A stretch of 64,000 bases of DNA from Candidatus Binatia bacterium (GTDB lineage: Bacteria > Desulfobacterota > Binatia > UBA9968). Made by a program: the position numbers and the translations under genes. The notes beneath the pieces were generated by a model. The model saw nothing but the letters and a program-made list of their open reading frames with translations, was not told where the DNA came from and did not search any database. Where the stretch lies: positions 17,882-81,881 of the forward strand of contig JBOHVN010000244.1 in the NCBI GenBank assembly GCA_050735675.1, in the 5' to 3' direction. Shown here piece by piece: positions 2,132-58,157 of this stretch (within the stretch, counting starts at the first letter, position 1; each line of letters opens with the position of its first letter).

Positions 2132-4489
2132 ATGCAACTTATATCTTCAGAACGTTCTCAGGGTCTTAGTTCAGCAGCCAGTACCGGCGGCGGTGATCGT
2201 GGAATCGTCATGCTGATGCGGAAATTCTATCCTCTCACCGGCGGGTACCAGAACCAGGCCTTGCGGCTTGCTAGAGAGCTAAGGAAGAACGGCTTCCAAG
2301 TCCATGTCGTCACCCAGCGCCATGGGACCCTCTCGCGTTACGAGCTCCATCAGGAGATACCAATCTACCGGGTTTTCGCGTTCCCGTCAGGCCACCTGGC
2401 TGCGTGGTCTTATCTGATTTCAGCATTTTTCTGGATGGTGCGGAACAGAGAGCGGTTTCAAATCATCCACGCCAACCGCTCATCTTCCGGCCTGGTGGCC
2501 GGTCTAATCGGGTTCGTGCTTCGGAAACCTGTTCTATACAAACTAACTCGCGGAGACGAGATCGATGTGAAGGGTTTCCGGACTACTTTTCTTGGCCGTT
2601 TCAAGGTGCAGTGCTTGAAACATACCGTTGATAAGTTCGTTGCGATAACCAAGAGGATTGAGGAGGATCTTCGACGCCTGGGTATTCCTTCAAAGAAGCT
2701 TGCCAGGATCCCCAATGGAATCGAACTTAATCATTTTTCACAATCGCATGACCGCGAGAGAGTCAAATCGGCCTTGGGTTGGGGATCGGAAACCAAAGTG
2801 GCGACTTTTGTCGGAAGGCTCATCCAGGTAAAAGGCGTAGACTGGCTGCTTCGAGTTTGGCGGGACGTGAGTCAGCAGGAACCGCTGGGGCGTCTCTTAA
2901 TCATCGGAGACGGGCCAGAGCGACCCGCTCTGGAAGATCAAGTTCGCTCTTTTGACTTAACAGACTCTGTAGCCTTGCTAGGGAGGCAAGAAGATGTCTT
3001 TAAATTTTTAGCCATAACTGATGTGTTTGTGCTTCCGTCAAGGCTTGAAGGTGTTTCAAATGCCCTTTTAGAAGCAATGTCTCAGGGGTTGCCGGTAATC
3101 GTGGCAGACGACGAGCTGGGTGGAAATCGGGAAGTGGTAGATAATCGAATTGACGGATACATTGTGAAGATCGGTGATGATAGGTCCTTTACCGAAATCC
3201 TGGTGAAACTTCTACGAGATGCAGAACTGCGAAACAACATGGGGCGAAAGGCAAAGGATAAAATAGAGCAGAGATTTTCCATGGACAGCGTCGTGGATGG
3301 GTATTGCCGTATCTACAATGAATTATCCGAGATCCAGGCGCGATCCATGGCCGGCCAAAAGCCATCTGTAGGAATATTTTTAGCCAGGCCGGATCGTAGC
3401 TTTCACATGGCGCGGAAACTCCGTGAAAAGGGCTTCAATATCATTCATTACAACACGGTTGGATATAAGGATGATTCTTATGTCAAGGTGCGGGGCGGGC
3501 CGATAGCGGCCCTAGCGCATCTTTTGCTGCGGACAAATAACGACATATACTTTACCTCTCTCGGATTCGTTCCTTCCACTTGGTTGTATCTAAACAAGCG
3601 CCTGCGCCGAAAACCGTATGTTTTCAATGCTACCGGGCTTAGGTGGGAGACTTTCTACGACAGGTCGTCTAGAAAACCGTTCTCAAGCTTTTTTTCCCAC
3701 CAGTTCTATCCTTTCCTGTTGCACTGTACTTTCGCCGGAGCGAGCAGAATCGTCTGTAACAGCCACTTCCTCGAACGCACGCTCAGCATCCACTATCCCA
3801 AATATAAAGAGCGATTGCTGACGATTTACAACGGTATTGAGTTTGACCGGTACGCATCGGGCCGGCGTCGACCTCTTCCGGGCGTGGATAAAGGTGACTT
3901 GATTCTTCTCTGCGTGACGGCGCTTAATTTCAAGAATAAATCGAAGGGTCTTCAAATCGTTATGGATGCCTTCGATCATGTGAGAGCTAAGAGAAAGGAC
4001 GCCAAATTGGTCATCTCCGCCAAGACCTCCAACCCTCTATATCAAAAGGAGGCGGAAAGTTATTTGGAGTCGAAGCCGTGGAGGGACTCCGTCACACTTA
4101 TGTATAACCATAGCGATATCCCGGACCTGTTGGCGAGCGGGGATATTTTTGTCTATGCCACTCCCAACAATTCCAACGACAGCCTTCCCAGAGCGCTATT
4201 GGAAGCCCAATCGGCGGGTCTGCCGGTCGTCACAACGGACACGAGCGGGTGCCCGGAGATCGTTCGTGACGGAAAAACCGGCTTTGTTGTTCCCTATGAA
4301 GCCAGCGCGATGGCAGAAAGAATCCTGCAACTCATGGACAGTCCGCAGTTACGGCTTGATATGGGTAGAGAGGCCCAAGAATGGATCCGGCAGCGATTTA
4401 ATTGGGATCAGATGGCTTCCGCCTATGCCAAGGTGTTCCTCGAGGTCGCCGCTGGCCAACAACGGAATTCGCTAAGGAAGAACATATGA
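2132..4489 (+). CDS. Fused double glycosyltransferase (two GT4/GT-B modules in one polypeptide)
   Basis: 785-aa ORF. Module 1 has FYPLTGGYQNQA and VLPSRLEGVSNALLEAMSQGLPVIVAD. Module 2 has YATPNNSNDSLPRALLEAQSAGLPVVTTDTSGCPEIV. The start is uncertain (ATG 2132 or ATG 2210). Confidence 0.8.
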   Translation: MQLISSERSQGLSSAASTGGGDRGIVMLMRKFYPLTGGYQNQALRLARELRKNGFQVHVVTQRHGTLSRYELHQEIPIYRVFAFPSGHLAAWSYLISAFFWMVRNRERFQIIHANRSSSGLVAGLIGFVLRKPVLYKLTRGDEIDVKGFRTTFLGRFKVQCLKHTVDKFVAITKRIEEDLRRLGIPSKKLARIPNGIELNHFSQSHDRERVKSALGWGSETKVATFVGRLIQVKGVDWLLRVWRDVSQQEPLGRLLIIGDGPERPALEDQVRSFDLTDSVALLGRQEDVFKFLAITDVFVLPSRLEGVSNALLEAMSQGLPVIVADDELGGNREVVDNRIDGYIVKIGDDRSFTEILVKLLRDAELRNNMGRKAKDKIEQRFSMDSVVDGYCRIYNELSEIQARSMAGQKPSVGIFLARPDRSFHMARKLREKGFNIIHYNTVGYKDDSYVKVRGGPIAALAHLLLRTNNDIYFTSLGFVPSTWLYLNKRLRRKPYVFNATGLRWETFYDRSSRKPFSSFFSHQFYPFLLHCTFAGASRIVCNSHFLERTLSIHYPKYKERLLTIYNGIEFDRYASGRRRPLPGVDKGDLILLCVTALNFKNKSKGLQIVMDAFDHVRAKRKDAKLVISAKTSNPLYQKEAESYLESKPWRDSVTLMYNHSDIPDLLASGDIFVYATPNNSNDSLPRALLEAQSAGLPVVTTDTSGCPEIVRDGKTGFVVPYEASAMAERILQLMDSPQLRLDMGREAQEWIRQRFNWDQMASAYAKVFLEVAAGQQRNSLRKNI

Positions 4490-5883
4490 CGCAGCGCCCG
4501 AACATCTTGCTTATTGTCATGGATGCCACACGTTTTGATTACCTGTCCGCCTACGGGTATCCGCGCGAAAATACTCCTAACCTCGACCGCTTGGCGGAAG
4601 ACGGGATCCTCTTCGAGAGGGCCTTTGCCACTGCACCCTGGACCCCGCCATCCCATGCGTCCCTGTTCACCGGCAACTACCCGTCACGGCATGGGGTCGA
4701 CGTGAACGAAAATCTCTATTTGAGCGAGGAGAATCGCACCCTGGCGGAGATTTTGTCCGAGAACGGATACCGGACTTTCGGGGTCCTGCCCGATGCCCAC
4801 CTGAGCAGTGCCCGGGGGTTCCATAAGGGGTTTCAAAAATACATCGAGCTGTGGCGGATCCCTTATCTCTATCCGGAATATGACTGGATGGACTGCTTGC
4901 TGCGCAACCTCCTGTTTGGACGAGACAAGCGGACATATTACACCAATCGAGTGATCCAGCGGTGGTTAAGAGCGAACTGGCGTGGCACCGACCCCTTTTT
5001 CATCTTCCTGAATTACAAAACGGCTCACAACTCGTACCAACCCCCCCGCGCGTTCAAGCGCAGGTTTCAGAGTAGATCGGGGCCAGGGATCGACATGCGA
5101 AAGGTGAAGTTCTATTCCCGCGAGGGGGGATACCCCTACATGGCGCGACGGTTCGAAATGACGGACGAGGAATTTTCCATCCTGAAATCATGGTATGTGG
5201 GCGCCATCGCGTACATGGACTTCAGGCTCGGGGAACTGATTCAGACTCTTAAAGAGGCCGGCGCGTATGAGAATACGCTGATCATCGTCACGGCCGATCA
5301 TGGGGAAAACTTTGGAGAGCACCATCTGGGCTATCACATGTTCTGCCTCTACGAGAGCCTCATTCACGTTCCACTAATCATGAGCTGGCCGGCAGGTCTT
5401 CCGCGCGGACGGCGTGTCCCTGGGTTGGTGTCCCTCACTGATGTGGTGCCGACTCTCGTAGAACTGTTGCAACTCGAAGAGGAAGGGAGCGATACCCAGG
5501 GGACCAGCCTGATTCCTTTTGATGGACGGGAATACCATGACCATGTCTTCGCTGAATTCGGGCGGCCCCACTACATGCTGAAGCGGCTGCAGTCCCGGTT
5601 CCCTGGCGACGATTTCTCGCGGTTCGACAAAGGGCTTCGCTGCATCCGAACGGAGCAGTTCAAGCTGATCGTAGGGTCAGACGGGACCGAGGAGTTTTAC
5701 GATTTAGCGACCGATCCCGGGGAGATCTGCAATCTGTCCGGCAAGCAGCCAAAGGTCGCCGTAGAGCTCCGGGATACCCTCGCCAACTGGGGCTGCTCCA
5801 TGGAAAACTTCACGGCTACAGGCAAAGAACCAGACGAAAACGAATCGGTAAGACGGTCGCTACAGAAACTCGGATACTTCTAA
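4486..5883 (+). CDS. Alkaline-phosphatase-superfamily (sulfatase-fold) enzyme without the formylglycine motif
   Basis: ATG 4486 overlaps the upstream stop (ATGA). It has the NILLIVMDATRFD metal-site N-terminus and the TADHGENFGEHH motif. The nucleophile segment reads WTPPSHASLFTGNYPSRHG (Thr/His in place of Cys/Arg). Confidence 0.75.
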   Translation: MTQRPNILLIVMDATRFDYLSAYGYPRENTPNLDRLAEDGILFERAFATAPWTPPSHASLFTGNYPSRHGVDVNENLYLSEENRTLAEILSENGYRTFGVLPDAHLSSARGFHKGFQKYIELWRIPYLYPEYDWMDCLLRNLLFGRDKRTYYTNRVIQRWLRANWRGTDPFFIFLNYKTAHNSYQPPRAFKRRFQSRSGPGIDMRKVKFYSREGGYPYMARRFEMTDEEFSILKSWYVGAIAYMDFRLGELIQTLKEAGAYENTLIIVTADHGENFGEHHLGYHMFCLYESLIHVPLIMSWPAGLPRGRRVPGLVSLTDVVPTLVELLQLEEEGSDTQGTSLIPFDGREYHDHVFAEFGRPHYMLKRLQSRFPGDDFSRFDKGLRCIRTEQFKLIVGSDGTEEFYDLATDPGEICNLSGKQPKVAVELRDTLANWGCSMENFTATGKEPDENESVRRSLQKLGYF

Positions 5884-5954: not shown

Positions 5955-6977
5955 GTGGAATGGTTAGATCTTATCCAGTGCCTTATTTGTTCCGGGCCTA
6001 TTCACCCCGACGGCGACGGAGTGTTCCGCTGCAGTGGCTGCAGCACCACCTATCCTGCCGCGGGAAGGGTGCCCGACTTTATTGCTCGGGAAGGCGATAC
6101 CGCCACGGGGATCGAGCTCGATTATGACTATCATCTGCGCCGCCGTCACGGCTCCCTACGCGGTTTGTACAACCGGTTCTGCCGGTCGTTGGAACTTCAA
6201 CTAATCAAGCGAGAGGCCGATCGGCTCGGTAGGCCGCTTGATATGCTCGATGTGGGCTGTGGTAATCCGACCCGCTCCAATAGCACCTATCATGCACAGC
6301 TCTTCCCGCTCGCCAGATTGTACATTGGGATAGAGCCCTCGTTGCCGCTTGCTTCCCGCGTCCATCCTCTTCCGTCGGTCGGGCTCGTTCGGGCCAGTGG
6401 AGAGCTCCGCGTGTTAAGGGATCAAGTTGTGGACATGGCGCTGTCCTTCAGGGCGCTTGATCGGTGTGTGGATCCCGACCGTACTCTGGCTAACATGGCG
6501 GCCGCTCTACGCCCACAGGGTCATGTGTTGATCAGCCTCGTCAACAAGAATGTATGGTACAGAGCGGCCTCTAACGGAGTACACGCCATGCTCGCCCTGC
6601 GCTCGTCATCCAACGGAAGGCGCAGCGTAGAAATGTCGCCAGACGACTTGAGGCGGCGCCTTGAGTCTGTTGGTTTCCAGGATGTCGAAGTATACGACTT
6701 GCTCTATTTTTCAGGACTGGTTCAAAGCAAGGCCTTTGACTGGGTTTTGGCCTTGTTCGGAGAGCAGTGGTGTGCCGCTGCTCTCCGCCAGGCTGACCGT
6801 GTTGGTCGGCTCATCGCCCCCGAACGGGGTGGCATGTTTGTCGCCCTGGCGCGTAAACTCCAAAATAATGACGGTGAAACGAAGGGTAGCCGCAGCCACT
6901 CGATCGCACAGGATAAGAATTTTTTTTTAAAGGGAATTGTAGCGTCCAACCTGCAAAACAATTTACGCGCAGCTTAA
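5955..6977 (+). CDS. SAM-dependent methyltransferase with N-terminal Cys4 zinc-ribbon (Trm112-like)
   Basis: GTG start. It carries a CLIC...CSGC ribbon followed by LDVGCGN (SAM motif I). Confidence 0.65.
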   Translation: MEWLDLIQCLICSGPIHPDGDGVFRCSGCSTTYPAAGRVPDFIAREGDTATGIELDYDYHLRRRHGSLRGLYNRFCRSLELQLIKREADRLGRPLDMLDVGCGNPTRSNSTYHAQLFPLARLYIGIEPSLPLASRVHPLPSVGLVRASGELRVLRDQVVDMALSFRALDRCVDPDRTLANMAAALRPQGHVLISLVNKNVWYRAASNGVHAMLALRSSSNGRRSVEMSPDDLRRRLESVGFQDVEVYDLLYFSGLVQSKAFDWVLALFGEQWCAAALRQADRVGRLIAPERGGMFVALARKLQNNDGETKGSRSHSIAQDKNFFLKGIVASNLQNNLRAA

Positions 6978-7014
6978 GGTTTTGCAAGAAAAGGCGCATC
7001 GGGATGTGGCAGCC

Positions 7015-8247
7015 ATGAGCAGAGGGATATTAAATGGGGCGGCTAAGCTGACCGTCGCGGCCTACAGTCATTTCGGCGCAACAGGCCTGAAGGGGGTCGA
7101 GACTTACTATCTCGTTAAAGAGGCCTGGAAGCGGGGCTATCTGCAAAAGGTGATTGCCGTATCCAAAAAGCGTTGCCGTTACGAGTTTGACCTCGATCTT
7201 GTCGACACGCTTCCGGGAGAGTCGCGCCTTATTTCCGGATTGATGCAGATCAAGGAAAAGGCCTGGCAGGCGTTCCCATCGAGATGGTTTGGCGAGATGA
7301 TCTTCGACCGCTATGCGGCATCAAGACTGAAGCGACCAGGCGGCATCCTGATCCTGACCCCGGGGATGATCCACACAGCACGGAGAGCTAAAGCCCTGGG
7401 GTATACGGTCTTCCTGTACGGCGCTACTCCTGATCCCAGGTATCTTCTGGAGCAGATCCGGACCGAACGCGAGGCTTTCGGCTTAAAAGTCGGCGAGGAG
7501 GATAACGATCGCTCGCGGATGGTGGCACGATGGACGGCCAGCCTCGCATTAACAGACTACCTCCTTGCCGTCTCGGAATTTTCCAAGGAGACGTATATCA
7601 CCTACGGTTTCCCGCAGGAAAGGGTATCAGTGGCTCCCCTTGGGGTCTCGCTACAGCGCTTTCCGCGAACACGGCCTTCCGAAATGAAACATTTTACATG
7701 CCTTTTTGTTGGACATGTGAACGGAACCACTGGAATCGTGAAAGGACTACAATATTTATTGCCGGCGTGGGCTGAGCTTAAGCTGGAAAATGCCACGTTA
7801 GTGATTTGTGGAAAGATCGGCGCAGAAGCCGATGAGATAATCCGCAGATACAAGGGACTGCTAGGCAACGTTGAGTTCAAGGGGCCGGTTAGTGACCCTG
7901 GAGATTATTATCGGAAAGCGGCGGTGTTTGTCTTGCCATCGGTTGCGGAAGGGATGGCCAAGGTGACAATCGAGGCTATGGCGACCGGGCGCCCCGTCAT
8001 TGTCACCCCGAACTGCGGAGCCGTGGCGCGCGATCGTGTGGACGGTTTCTATGTCCCGCCGCGAGATGTGGAGGCCTTAAAGGAAAGAATGCTCTATTTC
8101 TACGAGCATCGCGAAGAGGTCGCGAGGATGGGCGCCAACGCCAGTGAATGGGCCCAGCGGTTCAGCTGGGAGAGATTTAGCCAGCAGATTGCTGATGTCA
8201 TCGTGCAGACGCCCGCTCAGCACCACGGCAAGGTTGAGAAACGATGA
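7015..8247 (+). CDS. Glycosyltransferase, GT4-like C-terminal domain with atypical N-terminal domain (paralog of 33446..34711)
   Basis: It has FVLPSVAEGMAKVTIEAMATGRPVIVTP (E-x7-E region). ATG 7015 was chosen by alignment to the paralog's N-terminus; the ORF is open from 6982. Confidence 0.75.
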   Translation: MSRGILNGAAKLTVAAYSHFGATGLKGVETYYLVKEAWKRGYLQKVIAVSKKRCRYEFDLDLVDTLPGESRLISGLMQIKEKAWQAFPSRWFGEMIFDRYAASRLKRPGGILILTPGMIHTARRAKALGYTVFLYGATPDPRYLLEQIRTEREAFGLKVGEEDNDRSRMVARWTASLALTDYLLAVSEFSKETYITYGFPQERVSVAPLGVSLQRFPRTRPSEMKHFTCLFVGHVNGTTGIVKGLQYLLPAWAELKLENATLVICGKIGAEADEIIRRYKGLLGNVEFKGPVSDPGDYYRKAAVFVLPSVAEGMAKVTIEAMATGRPVIVTPNCGAVARDRVDGFYVPPRDVEALKERMLYFYEHREEVARMGANASEWAQRFSWERFSQQIADVIVQTPAQHHGKVEKR

Positions 8248-9800
8248 AATCGGCGCGGGGAAGAATTGTTCAGGCGACCGGCCTGCTTATGGCACTGCAA
8301 GTCGTTGAGCAGGTGACCGGGCTTTTGAAGCAGGTACTGATCGCGGCGGCGTTCGGGATCTCGGCAACGATGGACAGTTATGTAGTTGCGATCAGTGTCG
8401 TCGGCCTTATCTTGCTGTGGGTCAGGTTGCCGGTGCGGGAAACGTTGATTCCTTTGTTCCGCTATAATTTGGCGCGGTGCGGCGAAGAGACCTCTTGGCG
8501 ACACGCCAGTATTATGCTCAATAACTTTTCTATCGCCCTTATTTTCATCGTTCTTGCCGGAGAGATATTAGCCCCCTACATCGTAAACATTGTGGCCCTT
8601 GGTTTTAATGAAGAAGGCCAATCTTTGGCCACTTCCTTAGCTCGAATCACGATGCCCATCGTGGCGTTCATCGGAATGGGAACTCTCCTGGCACAGATGT
8701 CCTATTCTTACGAGAAATTTTTCCGCCCCGGCATCGTCGGTACGGTAAACAATCTTATAGTTCTTCTCGCACTTCTCACTGCCGGAAGCATGTACGGAAT
8801 TCATGGTTTGGCGATCGCGGTAGTGATAGGCGCCGGTTGCGAGTTTCTTTTTCAGCTCCCTCTTCTGTGGCACAAACGAAAGCTCTACTCTTTCGAAGTG
8901 AACCTGCGCCACCCGGAGATGCTCCAAATGGGAAAGCTCAGCTTTCCCCTACTTATCTCTACCGGAGGCAATGAACTCGCGCGGATTACCGACCGAATGT
9001 TTGCATCGCTTTTGTCTGCTGGTAGCCTTTCGGCGCTAGCGTTTGCTCATCGACCGATATCGGTCTTGGTCGATTTTCTCATCAACCCTTTACTTCAGGC
9101 CGTCTTTCCTCACTTCGCGAAGCTTAGTGCCGAACAGGATTTTGCTACCCTATCGAAGGAACTGTTCTACTACTTGCGGGGGGTCTTGTTTTTTACCCTT
9201 CCAGCCGCTATTGGCACCATGCTCACCGCAGAAGCCATTGTTAAAGCATTCTACCAACGTGGGGCCTTTGATGAGGCTGCGGTCCAGTTAACCAGTCAGG
9301 CACTATTATGCTATGCAATTGGATTTCCCGCCGTGGCAATCATGAGAGTATTGCGGCGGACGTTTTTCGGCCTTAAAGATACCTGGACACCGACCAAGAT
9401 AGCGTTGCTTCGAATCGCGATCAAAATTGTACTTTCTTGGATCCTAATACGGTATTTTGCTCACGCGGGTATAGCTTTGGCTGAGTCGCTTTCATTAATT
9501 GCAAACGCGGTGCTGCTTTTCTGCTTTCTTCCGAAAGAGATCAAGAGGCAAGAGGGTGCAAGGACGCTGGTAGCGTTCGCAAAGACTTTAGGCAGCTGCA
9601 CTATCATGGGAATCATTGTGTACCTTACGAAGGGTATGCTCGGGGTGAGGGTTGGCCCAACTGTGGATCTCGCTTTGGTGGTGTTTGTCGGTGTCGCAGT
9701 TTACGGGCTAATCGCGAGCTTCCTTCAGGCACAGACGGTCGGCGCGCTCTTGAGGGTCGTGACGGAACTAGGGAGCAAATATCGCCCGCGGAGTTCGTGA
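8244..9800 (+). CDS. MurJ/MviN-family (MOP superfamily) polysaccharide flippase
   Basis: 518-aa polytopic ORF (about 14 hydrophobic segments) with a MurJ-like N-terminus (LLKQVLIAAAFGISATMDSYVVA). The start overlaps the upstream stop (ATGA). Confidence 0.75.
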   Translation: MKSARGRIVQATGLLMALQVVEQVTGLLKQVLIAAAFGISATMDSYVVAISVVGLILLWVRLPVRETLIPLFRYNLARCGEETSWRHASIMLNNFSIALIFIVLAGEILAPYIVNIVALGFNEEGQSLATSLARITMPIVAFIGMGTLLAQMSYSYEKFFRPGIVGTVNNLIVLLALLTAGSMYGIHGLAIAVVIGAGCEFLFQLPLLWHKRKLYSFEVNLRHPEMLQMGKLSFPLLISTGGNELARITDRMFASLLSAGSLSALAFAHRPISVLVDFLINPLLQAVFPHFAKLSAEQDFATLSKELFYYLRGVLFFTLPAAIGTMLTAEAIVKAFYQRGAFDEAAVQLTSQALLCYAIGFPAVAIMRVLRRTFFGLKDTWTPTKIALLRIAIKIVLSWILIRYFAHAGIALAESLSLIANAVLLFCFLPKEIKRQEGARTLVAFAKTLGSCTIMGIIVYLTKGMLGVRVGPTVDLALVVFVGVAVYGLIASFLQAQTVGALLRVVTELGSKYRPRSS

Positions 9801-9920
9801 GCCATATCAACAGCCGTCATTTAAATTCGCAATGCTACTCGCACGTTGTTCCTAGCTTACGAGGCGAAGAAGGCTCGGACCTAACGACATCGACTCATTA
9901 GACTTGGGGAATACGTGACG

Positions 9921-10763
9921 ATGAAACCCTACATCAATCCTAAGACACGCGTCATGAAGGTTGTCAGATCACTGACAGCACCAATGCGAGTCATGCCGAA
10001 TTTTTTGTTTATCGGCGGCAACAGGTGCGGCACGACGACTTTGTATAGGCATCTCTGTGATCATCCTTGTGTGGCACCGTCGGTGCGAAGCGAGGTGCTG
10101 TTCTTCGATTTGAAATTCGCCAAGGGTCTGGGATGGTACAAGACTCATTTTCCCACGGTTATTTACAAGCATTGGACCCAATTACGGACAAGAAGGTTTC
10201 TTACCGGCGAGGGAACTACGTATTACATGTTTCATCCACGTGCTCCTCAAAGGATCCGAGAGACGTTGCCAGAGGTTAAGCTGATAATATTACTGCGAAA
10301 TCCAGTTGACAGAGCGTATTCACAGTACCACCAAAAAATTAGAAGAGGCCGGGAGACCTTATCGTTTGAAGACGCGGTCGAGGCCGAGCCCCGGAGGCTT
10401 GAAGGGGAGCTGGAGAAGATGCTAGCGGATGCCAATTACATCAGCGTTCATCACCGCGATCATTCTTATCTGGCGAGAGGCGTCTACATTAGTCAGCTTA
10501 GTCATTGGATGACCCTGTTTCCGAAAGAGCAAATGTTAATTCTGCGCAGTGAAGACTTACGTGTCAGGCCGGCGGATCTCTTCAAGCAGGCTTTAAGGTT
10601 TTTGGAATTGCCGATCTGGGAACCGCCGGCCTACGACAACTACAATTTTGCCACGTACTGCCAGATGGAGTCCCGCACTCGCAAGCGTTTAATCGACTAC
10701 TTCAACCCGCACAATCAGCGATTGTATGAGTTCTTAGGACGGGATTTTGGCTGGGACAGATGA
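9921..10763 (+). CDS. PAPS-dependent sulfotransferase, type B (copy B1)
   Basis: It has a 5'-PSB loop (FIGGNRCGTTT) and a 3'-PB motif (LLRNPVDRAYSQY). The ORF is open from GTG 9915. Confidence 0.8.
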   Translation: MKPYINPKTRVMKVVRSLTAPMRVMPNFLFIGGNRCGTTTLYRHLCDHPCVAPSVRSEVLFFDLKFAKGLGWYKTHFPTVIYKHWTQLRTRRFLTGEGTTYYMFHPRAPQRIRETLPEVKLIILLRNPVDRAYSQYHQKIRRGRETLSFEDAVEAEPRRLEGELEKMLADANYISVHHRDHSYLARGVYISQLSHWMTLFPKEQMLILRSEDLRVRPADLFKQALRFLELPIWEPPAYDNYNFATYCQMESRTRKRLIDYFNPHNQRLYEFLGRDFGWDR

Positions 10764-10981
10764 AGCACGATTCATAGGGTGGTGCAGAGACTTTGCCCGC
10801 AGTGAGACGGGCTAAAGGTGTCTCCTCGGGCACCCCAATGCGGCGCGCCTATATCAATCGAGTACTTTAAGCAGTATCCGTGCTTTTCCCCGATGTAAGG
10901 ATCTCGACTCCTTCGGCAACGTTCGTGACTCGTGAATTGTAGGTCAACATTAACGTCATCAAACAGGTAACGGAGGTGCTT

Positions 10982-11854
10982 ATGTTTCAAAAATTTCTTC
11001 TGGTTATCGGCATCGCGATCTTCATGGGTATGGCCTTCAGTTCGCCAACGTTAGGGGCGCCTTGCGGAGGTAATACCGTATGTGTCTGCGGCGACACAGT
11101 GGAGGCGGATCGGACCCTGACGGGGGCCGACCCCGTACTGAACGCTGTGTGTCCGGGTGACGGTCTGATTATGAACACGAGCGGCGTCACTTTGAACCTC
11201 CGGGGCGAGAGGATCAAAGGCGATGGCGGTGCCGGCGACGTTGGCATAAGGATCTTAGATGGCGTTAACAATATCGAGATCGTAGACGGTGAAATCAGGG
11301 AGTTTGGGACCGGCATCAAGTCCCAGGGAACGACTACTGGGTCCACCATCAAAGAGATCGGCATCAAAGGCAGTACCTTGGACGGCATGGACATTTGGGG
11401 CACCGGCAATATCTTCGAAAACAATAGGCAACTAGCCGGAAACGGCGGCGATGGCATGAGAATCACCGGGGATGATAACTTCGTAACGCTTAACCGGGCA
11501 GTCGAGAACGTCGGGGACGGGATCGTAGTGATCGGGAACCATAACGACATCTCCGAGAAGAATCAAAGTTCTAACAATAAGGGCAATGGAATGTATGTCG
11601 AGGGGAATGATAATGCCATCCTCGACAATAACCAGATACATCACAACAAAGGCTATGGGCTCCGCGTCATCGGGACTGGCAATATTATCACACGGAATAT
11701 GACCAACAGAGACGGTCCGTTAGGGATTTTGGTAACCGGGTTAAATGCCGTTGATGGAAATAACATTGATGGTGGCGGCAACAACTCCAACCAGGGCCCC
11801 AAATATCTCACCAGCTCAGATTGCGAGATCGACGGGAACGCATGTCTGCCCTAG
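10982..11854 (+). CDS. Secreted right-handed parallel beta-helix repeat protein
   Basis: GGAGG lies 5 nt upstream of ATG 10982, and a signal peptide is present (FLLVIGIAIFMGMAFSSPTLGA). Repeated G-x-G-(I/M/L)-x-(I/V)-x-G turns occur (GDGMRITG, GDGIVVIG, GNGMYVEG, GYGLRVIG). Cys-rich segments cap both ends. Confidence 0.65.
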   Translation: MFQKFLLVIGIAIFMGMAFSSPTLGAPCGGNTVCVCGDTVEADRTLTGADPVLNAVCPGDGLIMNTSGVTLNLRGERIKGDGGAGDVGIRILDGVNNIEIVDGEIREFGTGIKSQGTTTGSTIKEIGIKGSTLDGMDIWGTGNIFENNRQLAGNGGDGMRITGDDNFVTLNRAVENVGDGIVVIGNHNDISEKNQSSNNKGNGMYVEGNDNAILDNNQIHHNKGYGLRVIGTGNIITRNMTNRDGPLGILVTGLNAVDGNNIDGGGNNSNQGPKYLTSSDCEIDGNACLP

Positions 11855-12744: not shown

Positions 12745-12786
12745 CGGCCTCCGTGGTTGCACGACCACCTCCACAAGGATTCGAAA

Positions 12787-13686: not shown

Positions 13687-13883
13687 AACGGCTCATTGAT
13701 CCTAAGCCACTGCCGCCTTTTCTGAAGCGGTTAGTCAAGGCCCCTCGGGCGCTCACGGCCAGCGTCTGACTCGTGCTGGATTTTTTCATCATCGGAGCTC
13801 AACGGTGCGGCATTAATTATTTCAAGCCGCACAATCAGCGGTTGTATGAATTTTTAGAGCGTGATTTCGGCTGGGGACGGTGA
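13683..13883 (+). pseudogene. Decayed type-B sulfotransferase: in-frame internal deletion plus nonsense codon
   Basis: A 67-codon frame reads MKRLIDPKPLPPFLKRLVKAPRALTASV-TGA-LVLDFFIIGAQRCG joined directly to INYFKPHNQRLYEFLERDFGWGR-stop. The N-terminus matches copy B2 and the C-terminus matches copy B1. About 220 core codons are missing. Confidence 0.75.
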
Positions 13884-13924
13884 AGCAGGTTGTCGCAGTG
13901 CTCCCTGGTACAGGAGATTCAAAA

Positions 13925-15684: not shown

Positions 15685-15701
15685 TCGACAATCATTTCGC
15701 T

Positions 15702-37423: not shown

Positions 37424-37443
37424 CTTGGGCAAAGCCCAAGTAT
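37424..37443 (+). repeat. Hairpin motif copy 1 (CTTGGGCAAAGCCCAAGTA) abutting a start codon
   Basis: A perfect 7-bp stem (CTTGGGC/GCCCAAG) with an AAA loop ends 1 nt before ATG 37442. A near-identical 20-mer occurs at 58910..58929. Confidence 0.5.
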
Positions 37444-47850: not shown

Positions 47851-48858
47851 GTGACTTATCGCGTGGAAAACCAAGTACTGACTGGTGATGAGTATAAGGC
47901 CCGGATTGCTGGGATCCGCGAGCGGGTAGTCGGTATGTACACCCAAATACCCTGGCCCGGCACACGCCAAACGGATGAGGAGATGTCGTGGCGACTGAAG
48001 GCCCTGGGCGTAAGTCCGGAAGACTACACTGACCGCAACGTGATTGAAATCGGATGTGGTACCGGCGATTACGCCCTCTGGTATGCAGGCCATGGTGCCC
48101 GACACGTGACTGGCGTGGACCTTTCTGATGGTTCGCTTATCAAGGCGAGAGAGAAGGCGGAGCATCACTCAATCAACAATGTGAGTTTTCTCAAGCAGGA
48201 TGTCCTCAGTTTGGAATTGCCTGATAACGCGTTTGACTATTCTTTCAGTGTCGGTGTTCTTCATCATACGGGCGATCCATTCCGAGGATTCCTGGAGATG
48301 GTACGTGTCACCAAACCAGGTGGTGTCGTGATCGTGTCGCTTTACAATAACTACAGCCGCTTCCTGCTAAATCTAAGACAGAGAATCTGTCGCTGGCTAG
48401 GCGGTGACGACATCTCAGCGCGGGTGCGATGGGGGCAGTGTCTCTTCCCGTTTTCAATTCGCAAGTTAAACAAACGCTATCATGGTCTTAACTACCGAGA
48501 GATCCTCTATGATACCTACGGTTTCCCTCATGAGACGCTACACACGGCCAACGAGGTTTTGAGATGGTTTAAACAGACGGGAGTCCGCTATACCGGTAGT
48601 TTTGCGCCGCTGCGGGTCCAAGACTATCCCTACATTTTGTCATTGCCAGAGTACGACCAGTTTCGCAACACGTTTGATGGATTTCCGTTTATGAGGTTTG
48701 TCGGGGATATATTTGCTAGCGGGACGGCCAAAAAAGTGAGGCGGAGAGAGCGAGAGTTTCTCGAACCAGAGCGACTCAATGCGATTCTCTGCCAGCTCTT
48801 ATGGATGCCCTTTGGCCTGCGCATAAGCTGCTTTACCGTTGCCGGGCGAAAGCAATAA
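47851..48858 (+). CDS. Class I SAM-dependent methyltransferase
   Basis: It has VIEIGCGTGDYA (motif I), VTGVDLS and SVGVLHHTGDP. GTG start. Confidence 0.75.
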   Translation: MTYRVENQVLTGDEYKARIAGIRERVVGMYTQIPWPGTRQTDEEMSWRLKALGVSPEDYTDRNVIEIGCGTGDYALWYAGHGARHVTGVDLSDGSLIKAREKAEHHSINNVSFLKQDVLSLELPDNAFDYSFSVGVLHHTGDPFRGFLEMVRVTKPGGVVIVSLYNNYSRFLLNLRQRICRWLGGDDISARVRWGQCLFPFSIRKLNKRYHGLNYREILYDTYGFPHETLHTANEVLRWFKQTGVRYTGSFAPLRVQDYPYILSLPEYDQFRNTFDGFPFMRFVGDIFASGTAKKVRRREREFLEPERLNAILCQLLWMPFGLRISCFTVAGRKQ

Positions 48859-49736
48859 TATTCTGGATCGCATTCGAGAATAGCGGATGTGGATGGCGAC
48901 GGAATGGCGACGGAGATCCAGACTACATCGCTGCGTATTTTGATCCCGGGGAGATTTTCTGGCTCGAGCGACCCGCGAATCCCCTAAAAGGGCCGTGGCC
49001 TCATCGCTTGGTAGATGACCAGATCTACGGGGTGCATGGTCTGATGGTAGGCGACATTGACGGTGATGGAAAACCAGATCTAATAACCAATAGCTCCCTG
49101 CCAAAGGGTTCATTTCCCGAATCCCTGCTGTGGTACAAGGTTCCGCCCCGACCACGGGAAGCTGCTCAGTGGGACCGCTTCGTGTTCGCTGATCGCGATG
49201 CTTCCGGACTGAGCCACTACTTCGGGTTCGGAGATGTGAATGGAGACGGGCGAAAGGATATTGCCAGCGCTGCCAAGCAGGGTGACTGGTTTGCCTGGTG
49301 GGAGGCGCCTTCAAACCCTGCTCAGCCCTGGAAGAAACATGAGGTTGCGACCCAGCAGAAAGGCGCAAGCCATATTTTGATGGGAGACATTAACCAGGAC
49401 GGGAAGGTCGATTTTGTCGCTGCTCGTGGCCATGGTCGGGGTTTAGTCTGGCACGAGGCTCCGTCTTGGAGAGCACGCGAGATTGCTCCTGCTCTGACTA
49501 GACCACACAGTTTGGCCATTGGGGATATTGATGGCGATGGAGACTTGGATGTTGTGAGCTGCTTCAATGGTGATCGTATCATCGCCTGGTTCGAAAATGA
49601 TGGCCGCGGAAACTTTACCATTCACCCCATCTATAAAGATCAAACGGCGTACGATATCGGTTTGATTGACGTGGATCGTGCTGGCGACCTAGATGTCCTC
49701 GTCGCTAGCGACAGAAGCAAGAACGTAGTTTGGTAG
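48801..49736 (+). CDS. FG-GAP/VCBS repeat protein
   Basis: Five repeats of D-x-D/N-x-D-G-x-x-D type are present (GDIDGDGKPDL, GDVNGDGRKDI, GDINQDGKVDF, GDIDGDGDLDV, DVDRAGDLDV). There is no signal peptide, and it overlaps the upstream gene by 58 nt. The start is uncertain. Confidence 0.65.
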   Translation: MDALWPAHKLLYRCRAKAIIFWIAFENSGCGWRRNGDGDPDYIAAYFDPGEIFWLERPANPLKGPWPHRLVDDQIYGVHGLMVGDIDGDGKPDLITNSSLPKGSFPESLLWYKVPPRPREAAQWDRFVFADRDASGLSHYFGFGDVNGDGRKDIASAAKQGDWFAWWEAPSNPAQPWKKHEVATQQKGASHILMGDINQDGKVDFVAARGHGRGLVWHEAPSWRAREIAPALTRPHSLAIGDIDGDGDLDVVSCFNGDRIIAWFENDGRGNFTIHPIYKDQTAYDIGLIDVDRAGDLDVLVASDRSKNVVW

Positions 49737-49798: not shown

Positions 49799-50932
49799 AT
49801 GCGCAATATGGCGCGTAAATCGCTGTGGCTCTGGATCGCTGTACTTGCAGGTCTGTTTTGGTTCATTGCTACACCTTCTCACGACCAAGCTAGTCTTCCG
49901 TATCCGCCGAGTTCCATCATTGCGAATATCACGTTCGACTGGTCGACCCACGACCGGGAAGCGCAGGGAAGCGACAACTGGCCGATTACCTGGGCCGACA
50001 ATGATCACCAATATACCTCATGGGGAGATGGGGGAGGCTTTGGCGGTACAAACAGAGACGGACGAGTTTCTCTAGGTGTTGCACGAGTCGAAGGAACGGC
50101 AGGCGGCCATCAGGGGATTAACGTTTGGGGCGGCAAAGAACCGGAGAATGAGGCAACATTTGAGGGTAAATCATACGGCATAATTTCTGTAGCGGGGATC
50201 TTATACATGTGGGTCAGCCCCGGATCGAATGCAACTAGTTATGAGTGGGCAAGAATCCACTCATCAACAAACCGCGGCGCTTCCTGGACAGCGGCCAACT
50301 GGACGTTCAAGAAGAGCGACGGGTTTATTCTCCCGACTTTCTTGCAGTTCGGTAAAGATTATCAAGGAGCTCGAGATAATTTTGTCTATATCTATGCAAA
50401 TCACTTTAAACCCAGGCTGATCGGCCTGAGCAAGGACAGGCTCCGAATCCACAAGCCGGGCGAAATCGCTTTAATGCGAGTTCCGAAAACAAGTATTTTG
50501 GACCGCCAGAGTTATGAGTTTTTCGCGGGAATCGATAACAATGGCAATCCGAGATGGACAAACGATTTAGAAGCACGGAAGGCTGTTTTTGAAGATACCA
50601 AGGGCGTAGGTTGGAATACCAGCGCCGGCTATAATCCTGGCCTACGGCGCTATCTCTTGATTACGGAGCACGTTGCATCTCTGAAGGGTAATATCGGAGT
50701 CTTTGACGCCCCGAACCCGTGGGGTCCTTGGACCACGGTGAAGTATGCAACCGCATTTGGAACGCCGCATGTGGAGTCAACCACTTTCTTTTGGAACTTC
50801 TCGAATAAGTGGCTGAGCGCAGATGGAAAACATTTCACTCTTGTATTTACAGGAACTGGCGGAGGAGAAGGCAACGACTCATGGAATACCGTAAGAGGCG
50901 CGTTTGTGATGAGAGAACAAGGGCTCAACTAG
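49799..50932 (+). CDS. Secreted protein of unknown function
   Basis: It has a signal peptide (LWLWIAVLAGLFWFIATPSHD) and a beta-rich, Trp/Gly-rich sequence (NWPITWADNDHQYTSWGDGGGFGG). I cannot name a family with confidence. Confidence 0.45.
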   Translation: MRNMARKSLWLWIAVLAGLFWFIATPSHDQASLPYPPSSIIANITFDWSTHDREAQGSDNWPITWADNDHQYTSWGDGGGFGGTNRDGRVSLGVARVEGTAGGHQGINVWGGKEPENEATFEGKSYGIISVAGILYMWVSPGSNATSYEWARIHSSTNRGASWTAANWTFKKSDGFILPTFLQFGKDYQGARDNFVYIYANHFKPRLIGLSKDRLRIHKPGEIALMRVPKTSILDRQSYEFFAGIDNNGNPRWTNDLEARKAVFEDTKGVGWNTSAGYNPGLRRYLLITEHVASLKGNIGVFDAPNPWGPWTTVKYATAFGTPHVESTTFFWNFSNKWLSADGKHFTLVFTGTGGGEGNDSWNTVRGAFVMREQGLN

Positions 50933-52557: not shown

Positions 52558-55340
<2,783 letters not shown>

Positions 55341-55421: not shown

Positions 55422-56213
55422 ATGATGGACGAATTAACGCGATTTTTCCTGGTTTTCGTTGTCGGTTCGGTCGGTCAGTTGATGGACGGCACGCTCGGCA
55501 TGGGTTTTGGCGTCTTCTCCGCCTCTATGCTGCTCACGGCGGGGTTTGCTCCGGTAGCGGTTGTAGCGACCGTGAATACGGCAAAAATTTTAACCGGAAT
55601 CTTTTCCGGACTGGCTCACTGGAGAGCCGGGAACGTACGGGTAGGTTGGCTCCTGCCACTGATCGTGCCGGGAATCGCCGGAGGGGTGCTGGGGGCTCAC
55701 TTCTTGGTTTCGGTGCCGCAGGACAGATTCCGATTCTGGATGGCTTTGGTTCTAGTTCTCATGGGTTTGTTCATCCTGTGCCGCTGTCTTTTCCCCGGTC
55801 TATTCGTTCGCGGCTCGTCTCAAGGAGAGTCTAAGGTGCGTTGGATACGTAGCCTTAGTTTGGTGATTCTTGGACTCGCCGCCGGGGCCCTCAATGCTTC
55901 GAGCGGCGCTTACGGTCCGTTTGCGACCTCGGGCCTGATGCTGATCACACGCGCAAAGACATCTCGCGCCGTCGGGACGGTGAACTTCGCAGAGATCTTC
56001 GTCGCCGCGAGCGTGATCTCCACGTTCTTATTTAAAAAGGGTTTGCACGCTCCATCCTGGGATCTGGTGCTTGCGCTGGTGTTGGGCGGAGCGCTCACGG
56101 CGCCACTTGCAGCCTATGCGTGCCGGAAGCTGCCGACGAAGTTGCTCCAGCTCGGAGTTGGCCTCGCTTTAATCAGTCTAAATTTAAGAGCGGTTATTTC
56201 GCAGCTTGGTTGA
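55422..56213 (+). CDS. TauE/SafE (TSUP) family anion permease
   Basis: 263-aa ORF with about 8 TM segments and Gly-rich helices (GTLGMGFGVFSA, GALNASSGAYGP). It lies immediately downstream of sat-cysC. Confidence 0.7.
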   Translation: MMDELTRFFLVFVVGSVGQLMDGTLGMGFGVFSASMLLTAGFAPVAVVATVNTAKILTGIFSGLAHWRAGNVRVGWLLPLIVPGIAGGVLGAHFLVSVPQDRFRFWMALVLVLMGLFILCRCLFPGLFVRGSSQGESKVRWIRSLSLVILGLAAGALNASSGAYGPFATSGLMLITRAKTSRAVGTVNFAEIFVAASVISTFLFKKGLHAPSWDLVLALVLGGALTAPLAAYACRKLPTKLLQLGVGLALISLNLRAVISQLG

Positions 56214-56241
56214 GACCAATTCGCATTAACGAAGACCGACC

Positions 56242-56810: not shown

Positions 56811-58157
56811 ATGGACGCAGTCATGGAATCTTCGTCACAAATGCCTTCGCTGCCACAGGGTAGAGATCTAGAGAAGAAGATTCGCGACCGATCCGCAAAG
56901 GTTGGCGTCGTCGGCTTGGGATATGTTGGCCTTTCCTTGGCTGTCGAAATGGCCAAAGAGAGATTCCAGGTCAAAGGCATCGATATTGACGCGGCGCGAG
57001 TCAATGCCGTCAATGCTGGCACATCCTATAACCTCGATGTGCCGAGCGAGATGCTTTTTTCGCTCGTCTCTCAAGAGAGGCTCAAGGCTACTCAAGCTCT
57101 GGCAACTATGGAAGACCTTGACGCGTTGAGCATATGTGTTCCAACACCTTTAAGGAAAACCAAAGAGCCCGATCTCTCCTACGTTATCGCTGCGATTGAG
57201 GCGGTACGCAATCATTTACGCCCAGGTCAGCTGATTGTCTTGGAAAGCACTACTTATCCTGGCACAACGAGGGAGCTGGTCCTACCGATCCTAGAGGAAA
57301 CTGGACTGCAAGTCGGGGAAGACTTTTTTCTCGCGTATTCGCCCGAGCGAGTAGATCCTGGGAACCCGACCTACAACAGCCGCAATATTCCAAAAATCAT
57401 CAGTGGCATAACCCCTCGCTGCACTGAGCTGGCCGCGTTATTTTATGGAGAGTTTATCGAAAAGATTATTCCCGTTGCGTCAGCCGAAGCCGCCGAAATG
57501 GTAAAGCTTCTAGAAAACACATTTCGCAGTGTCAATATTGCGCTTGCTAATGAGATGGCTCTGCTGTCTCACAAGCTTGGAATCAATGTTTGGGAGGTGA
57601 TCGAGGCGGCACAGACTAAGCCATTTGGCTTCATGGCCTTTTATCCCGGGCCAGGCCTCGGAGGGCACTGCATTCCGGTGGATCCGCATTATCTTACATG
57701 GAAAGCAAGAATGAACGGCTTTCATCCCCGCCTTATTGAGTTAGCTACAGACATTAACAGTCAAATGCCCACCTTTACAATTGAACGGATCGTCGATGCA
57801 TTGAACGAAAGGCGAATGAGCCTTAAAGGCTCAACGATTCTCGCTTTAGGGGTCGCCTACAAGCGTGATTCTAACGATCTCCGTGAATCACCAGCCACCG
57901 AGGTTATGCGAGGACTTCGACAAAAAGGGGCAACCATCTATTACTCGGATCCTTACGTCTCTTCAGTCGAAATCGCGGGCGAGACGTTAAAATCTCTCCA
58001 TCTTACTGTCGATGTTGTTGAGTCAATGGACTGCGCGGTCCTATTGACCAATCACGCAGACTTCAATTATGGGATGATTGCCGCACACAGCGCTCTCATA
58101 CTGGACAGCCGAAACGGCTTTAAAGATTTTTCAAGCCCCAATATTATCCGTCTCTGA
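56811..58157 (+). CDS. UDP-N-acetyl-hexosamine 6-dehydrogenase type nucleotide-sugar dehydrogenase (WbpA/WecC/TviB-like)
   Basis: GGGAGG RBS. It has VVGLGYVGLSLA (Rossmann) and the catalytic Cys motif GLGGHCIPVDP. It also has GVAYKRDSNDLRESPA. Confidence 0.85.
   Translation: MDAVMESSSQMPSLPQGRDLEKKIRDRSAKVGVVGLGYVGLSLAVEMAKERFQVKGIDIDAARVNAVNAGTSYNLDVPSEMLFSLVSQERLKATQALATMEDLDALSICVPTPLRKTKEPDLSYVIAAIEAVRNHLRPGQLIVLESTTYPGTTRELVLPILEETGLQVGEDFFLAYSPERVDPGNPTYNSRNIPKIISGITPRCTELAALFYGEFIEKIIPVASAEAAEMVKLLENTFRSVNIALANEMALLSHKLGINVWEVIEAAQTKPFGFMAFYPGPGLGGHCIPVDPHYLTWKARMNGFHPRLIELATDINSQMPTFTIERIVDALNERRMSLKGSTILALGVAYKRDSNDLRESPATEVMRGLRQKGATIYYSDPYVSSVEIAGETLKSLHLTVDVVESMDCAVLLTNHADFNYGMIAAHSALILDSRNGFKDFSSPNIIRL

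Follow-up and report, generated by a model that had tools for sequence, protein, structure and literature searches.

We describe here a 64,000-nucleotide stretch of DNA from a Candidatus Binatia bacterium (contig JBOHVN010000244.1, positions 17,882 to 81,881 of the forward strand; hereafter the window), which is best explained as most of a ~67-kb locus for an extracellular polysaccharide of the Wzx/Wzy type, complete with outer membrane polysaccharide export (OPX) and polysaccharide co-polymerase (PCP) proteins. Judged from the protein families encoded, its product would most likely be a heavily sulfated, multiply decorated acidic sugar polymer. An earlier note on this DNA had proposed an assembly locus that sulfates its product through local synthesis of 3'-phosphoadenosine 5'-phosphosulfate (PAPS) and recycling of 3'-phosphoadenosine 5'-phosphate (PAP), and this core proposal stands as the best explanation, given the matches of the sulfotransferases to heparan sulfate (HS) enzymes and the conserved linkage of CysQ, and of Sat-CysC with TauE, to polysaccharide genes. 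We put the probability that the locus makes and exports a sulfated extracellular polysaccharide by the route set out below at roughly 0.7, and we have less confidence that all six of its sulfotransferases decorate one single polymer. The gene inventory was obtained by scanning ~55 open reading frames (ORFs) of the window against Pfam and NCBIfam profiles, with the curated cutoffs applied for NCBIfam, and this annotation recovered nearly every gene that had been listed previously.

Sulfotransferases and PAPS metabolism

The window had been said to encode six intact sulfotransferases, and a hidden Markov model (HMM) built from them retrieved exactly six from a six-frame translation of the window. 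Recognised by Pfam (Sulfotransfer_1/_3) and by alignment, and all on the plus strand, they are ST1 (9915-10763), ST2 (12757-13686), ST3 (13880-14827), ST4 (14824-15684, in an ORF open from 14815), ST5 (27762-28613, where 27762 is the likely start in an ORF that opens at 27600), and ST6 (34752-35648). Pairwise identities of 26-70% separate them into three subgroups, A (ST1 and ST4), B (ST2, ST3, and ST6, with ST2 and ST3 70% identical to one another), and C (ST5). Motifs were assigned from the alignment of the sulfotransferases and from HMM alignment to the solved structures 1T8T and 3RNL. This revealed that the 5'-phosphosulfate-binding (5'-PSB) loop, G-x-x-(K/R)-x-G-T-(T/S), is kept in all six proteins, as is a glutamate (E60, within E-x-x-F-F) that aligns with the catalytic base of 3-OST-3 (AEPHFFD). 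The arginine of the 3'-phosphate-binding (3'-PB) motif, L-R-N-P-x-D-x-x-x-S, is likewise present throughout, and its serine is found in five of the six, with ST3 having a tyrosine at this position. For all three subgroups the best solved relatives are the bacterial protein 3RNL, followed by HS 3-OST-1/3/5 and the N-sulfotransferase domain of NDST1, with, for example, profile E-values of 2.7e-33 to 3-OST-3 and 3.5e-31 to NDST1. A structural model of ST4 was generated with AlphaFold from an 18-sequence alignment (predicted local distance difference test score, pLDDT, 81.6; predicted template modelling score, pTM, 0.82), and Foldseek matched it to PAP- and PAPS-bound 3-OST and NDST1 structures with a probability of 1.0 and TM-scores of 0.61-0.76. 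The PAPS-binding geometry on which the earlier note had staked its claim is thus seen in the model of ST4, the protein for which the fold and its PAPS pocket were tested, the other five being compared by sequence. Neither a signal peptide nor a transmembrane (TM) segment was detected in any of the six by a rough hydropathy scan, suggesting that sulfation should take place in the cytoplasm, where PAPS is made, in agreement with the model put forward for synechan (PMC8205485).

A seventh, broken gene had also been noticed, and it is present on the plus strand at 13683-13885, between ST2 and ST3, where ~45 codons from the start and ~20 from the end of a subgroup-A sulfotransferase gene have been joined by an internal deletion and are interrupted by a stop codon. 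As the N-terminus of this remnant resembles that of ST4 and its C-terminus that of ST1, it points to the gain and loss of sulfotransferase genes within the array. Subgroup A belongs to a family with thousands of homologues, and we analyzed 80 genome neighbourhoods of these. A single sulfotransferase was present within ±10 kb in 69 of the neighbourhoods and two to four in the remaining 11. Tandem arrays of three or four sulfotransferase genes were observed in metagenome-assembled genomes (MAGs) of Ktedonobacteraceae and Rubrobacteraceae (L003 8834-12791; also L011, L016, L021, L044, and L064), and we found no description of these arrays in the literature. Since the neighbourhoods range from one sulfotransferase to tandem arrays of four, the six in the window lie at the high end of a continuum and are not unique in kind.

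Sulfate activation and PAP recycling genes had been reported from the same stretch, and all three were borne out by the profile scans. CysQ, the 3'(2'),5'-bisphosphate nucleotidase that removes PAP, is encoded at 11902-12744 (+; TIGR01331, 311 bits against a cutoff of 229). A fused ATP sulfurylase-APS kinase (Sat-CysC), the predicted PAPS synthase, lies at 53553-55340 (+) and contains PUA_2, ATP-sulfurylase, and APS_kinase domains (NF004040, 859 bits against a cutoff of 669); it is followed by a TauE/SafE (TSUP) anion permease at 55422-56213 (+; Pfam), whose adjacency to Sat-CysC is conserved. At the start of the window, in a conserved upstream block, a PHP-domain metallohydrolase (23-688, +; Pfam PHP and PHP_C) weakly resembles PHP-type 3',5'-nucleoside bisphosphate phosphatase over its N-terminal part (E 3.5e-8), and could be a second PAP-removing enzyme.

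Export genes, gene order and conservation

Although the window lacks Wza and Wzc, as had been stated, the conclusion once drawn from this, that the export route is unexplained, does not hold. Using the PHP protein, we found a contig (L083) whose last 2238 bases are 100% identical to positions 1-2238 of the window and which reaches 8.9 kb further upstream. Its genes, all on the plus strand, encode in order a NusG paralogue of the RfaH-like kind, an OPX protein (Poly_export), an AAA ATPase most similar to the XrtA/PEP-CTERM-associated ATPase, a protein with sCache and HAMP domains, a chain-length determinant of the Wzz type, a tyrosine autokinase (BY-kinase; TIGR01007, 135 bits against a cutoff of 108), a 444-aa Wzy_C protein (L083 6755-8089), a polysaccharide deacetylase (TIGR03006, 365 against a cutoff of 276), the PHP protein, and an ATP-grasp ligase. 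OPX, PCP, BY-kinase, and Wzy_C proteins are thus all encoded within 9 kb upstream of the window, and these further genes place the start of the locus ~8.4 kb before the window and give it a length of ~67 kb. The ATP-grasp ligase (702-1877, +; 391 aa in L083; ATP-grasp_3 and ATPgrasp_Ter; ORF open from 678, called start 702) had been counted among the decoration genes of the 2132-58157 span; it is present, but lies outside that span. Short contigs from MAG GCA_973894135.1 and from run SRR27067776 also carry this DNA.

Within 2132-58157, a six-frame ORF listing placed all long ORFs on the plus strand save those at 16589-17746 and 40917-42092, in keeping with the two exceptions noted before, and the five ATGA start/stop overlaps (4486, 8244, 13683, 14824, and 35645) are exact. 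The seven GT4 glycosyltransferase modules in six genes were also recovered: one gene (2132-4489) holds two modules (Glycos_transf_1 in two stretches, E 8e-62; best NCBIfam match the PEP-CTERM/XrtA glycosyltransferase stp2, below cutoff) and the others, identified by Pfam, hold one each (6982-8247, 20772-21968, 25594-26760, 33446-34711, and 43619-44815; all +). The predicted MurJ/MOP-family flippase is found at 8244-9800 (+; MurJ 4e-69; TIGR01695, 262 bits against a cutoff of 236; ~13 TM segments) and is the candidate Wzx, although it could instead be a housekeeping MurJ. The priming polyprenyl-phosphate sugar-phosphate transferase is present at 28826-30778 (+; Bac_transf 5e-51), but its fusion to an IctB/O-antigen-ligase-like polytopic domain had been overlooked: TIGR03025 matches its N-terminal residues 41-223, covering the catalytic domain only, and TIGR00947 matches residues 282-454 (E 1.6e-9). 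Both this IctB-like domain and the Wzy_C protein of L083 could be either a polymerase or a ligase. Further membrane proteins are a polytopic protein with DUF6798 (35645-37240, +; Pfam and hydropathy), which had no match in a sequence search of the PDB, an LPG_synthase_TM, flippase-like protein (46818-47771, +; Pfam and NCBIfam), and a VanZ-like protein (22032-22460, +; Pfam). The G+C content is 0.57-0.58 at both ends of the window (1-2000 and 62001-64000) and mostly 0.48-0.56 within 2001-62000. A drop of this kind is common where polysaccharide loci have been exchanged in the past. Scans for Rfam families and tRNAs gave no matches in the window.

Candidate regulators are found at both ends of the locus, the RfaH-like protein at the 5' end and, in the conserved 3' end, a sigma-54-dependent response regulator (59635-61134, +; profile scans and synteny). 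No E. coli-type ops element (GGCGGTAG) occurs in L083 or the window, counts of the sigma-54 -24/-12 pattern in the two were at chance level, and a scan for sigma-70 promoters and terminators between 50 and 64 kb of the window gave numbers at or below shuffle expectation. One -24/-12-like site lies at L083 514-528, 34 nt upstream of the RfaH-like first gene, and is suggestive only; another, at 42147-42161 on the minus strand of the window, lies upstream of the minus-strand beta-lactamase-fold gene.

Much of this gene order is conserved. Of the species representatives, L006, a MAG labelled "uncultured delta proteobacterium", is the closest, with 82% identity for ST4, and four relatives (L006, two JGI contigs, and L088) keep the order (GT4), sulfatase-fold protein, [...], NosD, GT4, MurJ, CysQ, three sulfotransferases, DUF2334, [...], pyruvate kinase, UDP-glucose dehydrogenase, GT4, VanZ, AsnB. 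In L006, several sulfotransferase and lyase genes are in pieces (8158-10860 and 11990-13163), probably through long-read indel error, and gene counts from this assembly are therefore unreliable. Two further contigs (L084 and one JGI contig) keep a 3' module composed of a short-chain dehydrogenase/reductase (SDR) protein, Sat-CysC, TauE, a hypothetical protein, and a dehydrogenase, with the SDR protein, Sat-CysC, TauE, and the dehydrogenase 65-88% identical to those of the window (L084 8968-17671); the longer L084 runs on to the sigma-54 regulator (57% identical), and the conserved hypothetical protein (58243-58716, +) has a 45% identical homologue at the same position in L084. The module is preceded by carbamoyltransferase, AsnB, LPG_synthase_TM, FG-GAP, and DUF4185 genes on the JGI contig and by GT2 genes in L084. 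This looks like a cassette arrangement, in which the centre varies while the flanks are conserved, a pattern known from capsule and O-antigen loci.

Several observations weigh against the interpretation of the window as a locus for one heavily sulfated polymer. The source organism is uncultured, the conserved core of its relatives holds only three sulfotransferases, and three of the six sulfotransferases of the window, those of subgroups A and C, carry arginine at the position of the catalytic lysine of 3-OST and NDST. Sat-CysC is 71-88% identical across many lineages (more than 120 clusters), as would be expected of a housekeeping enzyme. The sulfotransferase remnant, together with a frameshift in the UDP-glucose dehydrogenase gene described below, suggests that part of the locus may be decaying, although the frameshift may alternatively be an assembly error. 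Finally, the presence of two proteins of the flippase kind (MurJ, 8244; LPG_synthase_TM, 46818), of at least two that resemble Wzy or O-antigen ligases (L083 6755-8089 and the 28826 protein in its C-terminal domain), and of two minus-strand genes that split the array into three blocks suggests that more than one glycan may be made. The window would then be a composite of at least two adjacent glycan pathways, for example an exopolysaccharide (EPS) together with an O-antigen-like, glycolipid, or protein glycan, with the six sulfotransferases shared and no product exceptionally dense in sulfate. The additional DUF6798 protein and the limited number of core sulfotransferases would fit such an arrangement, as would the different combinations in which relatives hold the blocks, with the 3' module following GT2 genes in L084 and AsnB located elsewhere in the JGI contigs. 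However, the ~73 kb of L083 and the window contain a single priming transferase and a single set of OPX, PCP, and kinase genes, almost every gene points the same way, the gaps are short and five overlaps of 4 nt are present, one RfaH-like antiterminator heads the array, and sulfotransferases are found in two of its three blocks. We regard a composite as a serious possibility, though an unlikely one.

A second explanation is that Sat-CysC, TauE, and CysQ serve housekeeping sulfate assimilation and merely adjoin the polysaccharide genes, so that the locus has no dedicated PAPS supply. While the breadth of Sat-CysC conservation favours this view, all the Sat-CysC contexts that we retrieved lie at the end of a polysaccharide locus, where its neighbours are a sugar epimerase, TauE, and an NDP-sugar dehydrogenase and never CysH or sulfite reductase, neither of which was found near it on L084 or the JGI contig. 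In addition, CysQ lies between the flippase and three sulfotransferases in four relatives, and the same arrangement, with a second cysNDC copy, has been documented for the chemically proven sulfated capsule of Vibrio sp. KMM 8419. The conserved linkage of CysQ and of Sat-CysC-TauE to polysaccharide genes is our main argument, short of proof, that the PAPS genes serve the polymer, and we consider a purely housekeeping role rather improbable.

We also considered whether the sulfotransferases might modify a target other than a polysaccharide, such as a glycolipid, a secreted protein or peptide, or a small metabolite. Sulfotransfer_1/_3 include lipid, peptide, and small-molecule enzymes, and none of the six proteins matched an NCBIfam equivalog. 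Yet the best solved relatives of the three subgroups are carbohydrate (HS) sulfotransferases, their genes are interleaved and translationally coupled with those for GT4, flippase, and deacetylase-like proteins, and the window contains no polyketide synthase, nonribosomal peptide synthetase, or lipid-synthesis genes. A non-polysaccharide target would accordingly be quite surprising.

Precursor, decoration and secreted proteins

Nearly everything in the earlier gene list was recovered, but the list omitted about a dozen further genes, namely those for two sulfatase-fold and three lyase-like proteins and for NosD-like, pyruvate kinase, CPA2, beta-lactamase-fold, LPG_synthase_TM, FG-GAP, DUF4185, and VanZ proteins, as well as the sigma-54 response regulator gene that follows shortly after the span. 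The first sulfatase-fold protein (4486-5883, +; Pfam Sulfatase 1e-51) is encoded by a gene with an ATGA overlap with that of the two-module GT4, matches PDB sulfatases down to 2.6e-37, and keeps the metal-binding D...DHGE residues, with W-T-P-P-S-H where S1 sulfatases have the formylglycine motif; the second (30872-31903, +; Pfam) is shorter, reads W-T-A-P-S-H, and had no match in a PDB sequence search. The formylglycine motif C/S-x-P-x-R is missing from both, and a rough hydropathy scan detected neither a signal peptide nor a TM segment in either. Among 116 aligned homologues of the 4486 protein (down to 36% identity), ~105 have T/S-x-P-(S/A)-H and none has C-x-P-x-R. Such homologues were found in polysaccharide biosynthesis loci with no sulfotransferase within 10 kb (L086 10001-11419; L087 10001-14234), once as three tandem copies. 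A classical sulfatase, or "sulfate-editing", role for the 4486 protein was rejected, as it lacks the formylglycine motif and a signal peptide. Phosphotransferases of the sulfatase/alkaline-phosphatase superfamily use a threonine nucleophile. Because their homologues occupy biosynthetic loci without sulfotransferases, the 4486 and 30872 proteins are probably cytoplasmic glycan-modifying enzymes with a threonine nucleophile.

Three secreted pectate-lyase-like paralogues are encoded in the window, the first a PL1/PelZ-like pectate-lyase-fold protein (16589-17746, -; Pfam and NCBIfam), the second with an fn3-like N-terminus (37385-38884, +; profile scans), and the third with a BACON-like C-terminus (39107-40825, +; Pfam and NCBIfam). 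They have in common the motif YQGFGA.TPGG...RVTNLNDSGPGSLRDAV, are probably lyases of the organism's own polymer or possibly epimerases, and would fit a polymer that can be cleaved by beta-elimination at uronic acids. Other secreted products are a right-handed beta-helix (NosD/CASH-like) protein (10976-11854, +; Beta_helix and NosD, with an N-terminal signal-like segment) and a DUF4185 protein (49799-50932, +; Pfam and hydropathy). The Sulfatase matches, the three lyase-like proteins, the BACON-like domain, and DUF4185 could also suggest that the region is partly a catabolic locus for foreign sulfated or uronic-acid polysaccharides, but this was rejected as highly improbable, given that the sulfatase-fold proteins lack the formylglycine motif, a signal peptide, and TM segments, that their homologues occupy biosynthetic loci without degradative genes, that genes for SusC/D, a TonB receptor, sugar uptake, and uronate catabolism are all absent, and that lyases and hydrolases such as AlgL, PslG, and PelA are usual within EPS loci.

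Both of the NDP-sugar dehydrogenases listed earlier are present, but one of these uronic-acid-forming enzymes is frameshifted. Compared with the 441-aa orthologue of L088, which is intact, the gene for this TuaD-type UDP-glucose 6-dehydrogenase (19438-20767, +; Pfam, NCBIfam, and orthologue alignment) has one extra base near 19871, within GGGGAGCCCTTT, that splits it; this +1 insertion marks either a true pseudogene or an assembly error, and this was the only split gene noticed in the window. The other is of the UDP-N-acetylhexosamine type (WecC/TviB-like; 56811-58157, +; below the NCBIfam cutoff). The two predicted SDR proteins were confirmed as an NDP-sugar epimerase/dehydratase (42297-43460, +; Pfam and NCBIfam) and a 4-epimerase whose best match is TviC, a UDP-GlcNAcA 4-epimerase (52558-53526, +; below cutoff). 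The TuaD-type and WecC/TviB-like dehydrogenases and the TviC-like epimerase together point to uronic and 2-acetamido-uronic acids as constituents of the polymer.

The decoration enzymes named earlier, comprising AsnB, three methyltransferases, a carbamoyltransferase, and two deacetylase-like proteins, are all encoded on the plus strand. The AsnB-type glutamine amidotransferase (22478-24403) has the XrtA/PEP-CTERM amidotransferase as its best family, below cutoff; AsnB-type enzymes amidate uronic acids in some O-antigens. Two of the methyltransferases are SAM-dependent (5955-6977, Methyltransf_23 and Methyltransf_11; 47851-48858, Pfam), the third has a Trm112-like zinc ribbon (24484-25578, in an ORF that opens at 24358), and the carbamoyltransferase is of the NodU/CmcH type (44842-46617; Pfam and NCBIfam). 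One DUF2334/deacetylase-like protein is encoded directly downstream of ST4 (15702-16514; Pfam), in an adjacency kept in relatives, and the other, DUF2334/polysaccharide-deacetylase-like, directly upstream of ST5 (26918-27712; DUF2334 2e-43). PDB sequence searches with the DUF2334 proteins gave no match, and a single-sequence AlphaFold model of the 26918 protein was unusable (pLDDT 38). The remaining genes encode a full-length pyruvate kinase (17784-19283, +; TIGR01064, 400 bits against a cutoff of 306), whose position before the UDP-glucose dehydrogenase and GT4 genes is kept in four relatives, a CPA2 cation:proton antiporter (31962-33317, +; Pfam and NCBIfam), an FG-GAP repeat protein (48801-49736, +; Pfam), and a beta-lactamase-fold serine hydrolase with an N-terminal anchor (40917-42092, -; Pfam and hydropathy), whose membership of the locus is uncertain.

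Taken together, these family assignments, from which every step is drawn, suggest the following route. The 28826 transferase would prime the lipid carrier, and the seven GT4 modules would elongate a repeat unit, a hetero-oligosaccharide with a high content of uronic and 2-acetamido-uronic acids, using precursors supplied by the two dehydrogenases and the TviC-like epimerase; one priming enzyme and seven modules suggest a repeat of about eight sugars. In the cytoplasm, the unit would be decorated by the methyltransferases, the carbamoyltransferase, and the AsnB-type enzyme (probably by amidation), possibly de-N-acetylated by the DUF2334 proteins, and sulfated at different positions by up to six soluble sulfotransferases of the HS 3-OST/NDST type. 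PAPS would be made in situ by Sat-CysC from sulfate that is perhaps imported by the adjacent TauE-family permease, and inhibitory PAP would be removed by CysQ, encoded among the sulfotransferase genes. The MurJ-family flippase would then flip the unit, a Wzy_C-type protein would polymerise it, and the PCP, tyrosine kinase, and OPX proteins encoded directly upstream of the window would export the polymer, which the three lyase-like paralogues and the beta-helix protein may trim or remodel outside the cell. The RfaH-like antiterminator and the sigma-54 response regulator are candidates for control of the pathway.

Comparison with known systems

Among described Wzx/Wzy systems we compared the locus with xss of Synechocystis sp. 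PCC 6803, which directs the synthesis of synechan (Maeda et al. 2021, PMC8205485). Both are EPS loci with a priming glycosyltransferase, several further glycosyltransferases, a flippase, a polymerase, a PCP, and cytoplasmic PAPS-type sulfotransferases encoded in the cluster. The cyanobacterial, plasmid-borne xss differs in having two sulfotransferases versus six, in lacking genes for PAPS synthesis, CysQ, and the permease, and in having its OPX encoded elsewhere, whereas here it is adjacent. The two also differ in regulation, which in xss is by XssQ/R/S, a STAND activator and a two-component pair; profile scans of the window detected no such STAND activator, and the candidates here are the RfaH-like and sigma-54 proteins. 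The eight sugars and two sulfates of synechan agree in number with its eight glycosyltransferases and two sulfotransferases (PMC8205485), and by this analogy six sulfotransferases would imply a very high sulfate density, provided that all six act on one repeat unit.

The claim that described systems use only a few sulfotransferases agrees with the two of xss, the two of Actinoplanes wps-1, and the three of Vibrio sp. KMM 8419; for Pontiella F21 the counts are one within the cluster and three genome-wide. The number encoded here exceeds that of any described example that we found in the literature. A PAPS supply encoded within the cluster, for its part, already has published precedents. Vibrio sp. 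KMM 8419 combines three sulfotransferases with a second cysNDC copy in an ABC-type capsule cluster, a combination that its authors regard as the hallmark of making sulfated polysaccharides, and the cluster of Cobetia marina KMM 1449 has cysNC, cysD, cysQ, and a sulfate permease (PMC11641403, PMC11766843). Like the locus described here, these clusters pair their own PAPS synthesis with sulfotransferases, and their products are chemically proven to be sulfated, whereas here the case is made from genes. They belong to marine Gammaproteobacteria, have one to three sulfotransferases and disaccharide repeats, and rely on ABC-transporter (Kps) export and CysDN/CysC activation in place of Wzx/Wzy with OPX/PCP and a fused Sat-CysC. 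Clusters for sulfated polysaccharides with their own PAPS genes are therefore not a new concept. We came across no earlier description of a Wzx/Wzy and OPX/PCP locus with six divergent sulfotransferases, of their membership of the HS clade, of the fused Sat-CysC, of the pairing with DUF2334, or of the host lineage.

The best family matches of the OPX protein, ATPase, chain-length determinant, tyrosine kinase, deacetylase, amidotransferase, stp2-like GT4, and sigma-54 regulator are to EPS loci of the XrtA/PEP-CTERM type, with TIGR03006 alone passing its cutoff and TIGR03015, TIGR03007, TIGR03018, TIGR03027, TIGR03108, TIGR02915, and TIGR03088 being best hits below cutoff. Neither exosortase XrtA nor PEP-CTERM proteins, nor any C-terminal PEP motif, were found in L083 and the window, although the exosortase and its substrates could be encoded elsewhere in the genome, and a literature search combining sulfotransferase, PEP-CTERM, and exopolysaccharide found no paper.

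Closest in sequence and fold to the sulfotransferases themselves are the HS 3-OSTs and NDST1 domain (PDB 1T8T, 3UAN, 1NST, and 8CCY) and bacterial 3RNL, with which they have the 5'-PSB, 3'-PB, and catalytic glutamate in common; they differ from the HS enzymes in being soluble, with no Golgi anchor, and in the arginine that three of them carry at the catalytic lysine position. The deacetylase-like genes that adjoin two of the sulfotransferases recall the pairing of deacetylase and sulfotransferase in NDST, although no similarity to NDST could be detected in the sequences of the DUF2334 proteins. The label "glycosaminoglycan-like" given to the product earlier is apt for the sulfotransferase family only, as all glycosyltransferases found are GT4 and profile scans detected no glycosaminoglycan (GAG) polymerase of the GT2, GT45, GT47, or GT64 type. 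Predicted enzymes for the precursors UDP-GlcA and UDP-HexNAcA are encoded. A bolder and distinctly doubtful extension would have the locus make an N- and O-sulfated (amino-)uronic polymer near the density of heparin, with the sulfotransferase/DUF2334 pairs at 14824-16514 and 26918-28613 acting as a split cytoplasmic analogue of NDST and the threonine-type sulfatase-fold proteins at 4486 and 30872 representing an unrecognised class of cytoplasmic glycan-modifying transferases.

Sulfated GAG-like material has been measured in sludge and anammox granules, for which there are no known producers or enzymes, and a locus family conserved among uncultured bacteria of soil and sediment could help to close this producer gap. 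As heparin, carrageenan, and fucoidan are valuable sulfated polysaccharide materials, the predicted value of such loci lies in candidate producers and in a toolbox of regio-distinct bacterial carbohydrate sulfotransferases for biomanufacturing. Recent papers (xss, PMC8205485; Actinoplanes wps-1) describe sulfated polysaccharides among bacteria as nearly confined to cyanobacteria, whereas arrays of several sulfotransferase genes occur well beyond that group.

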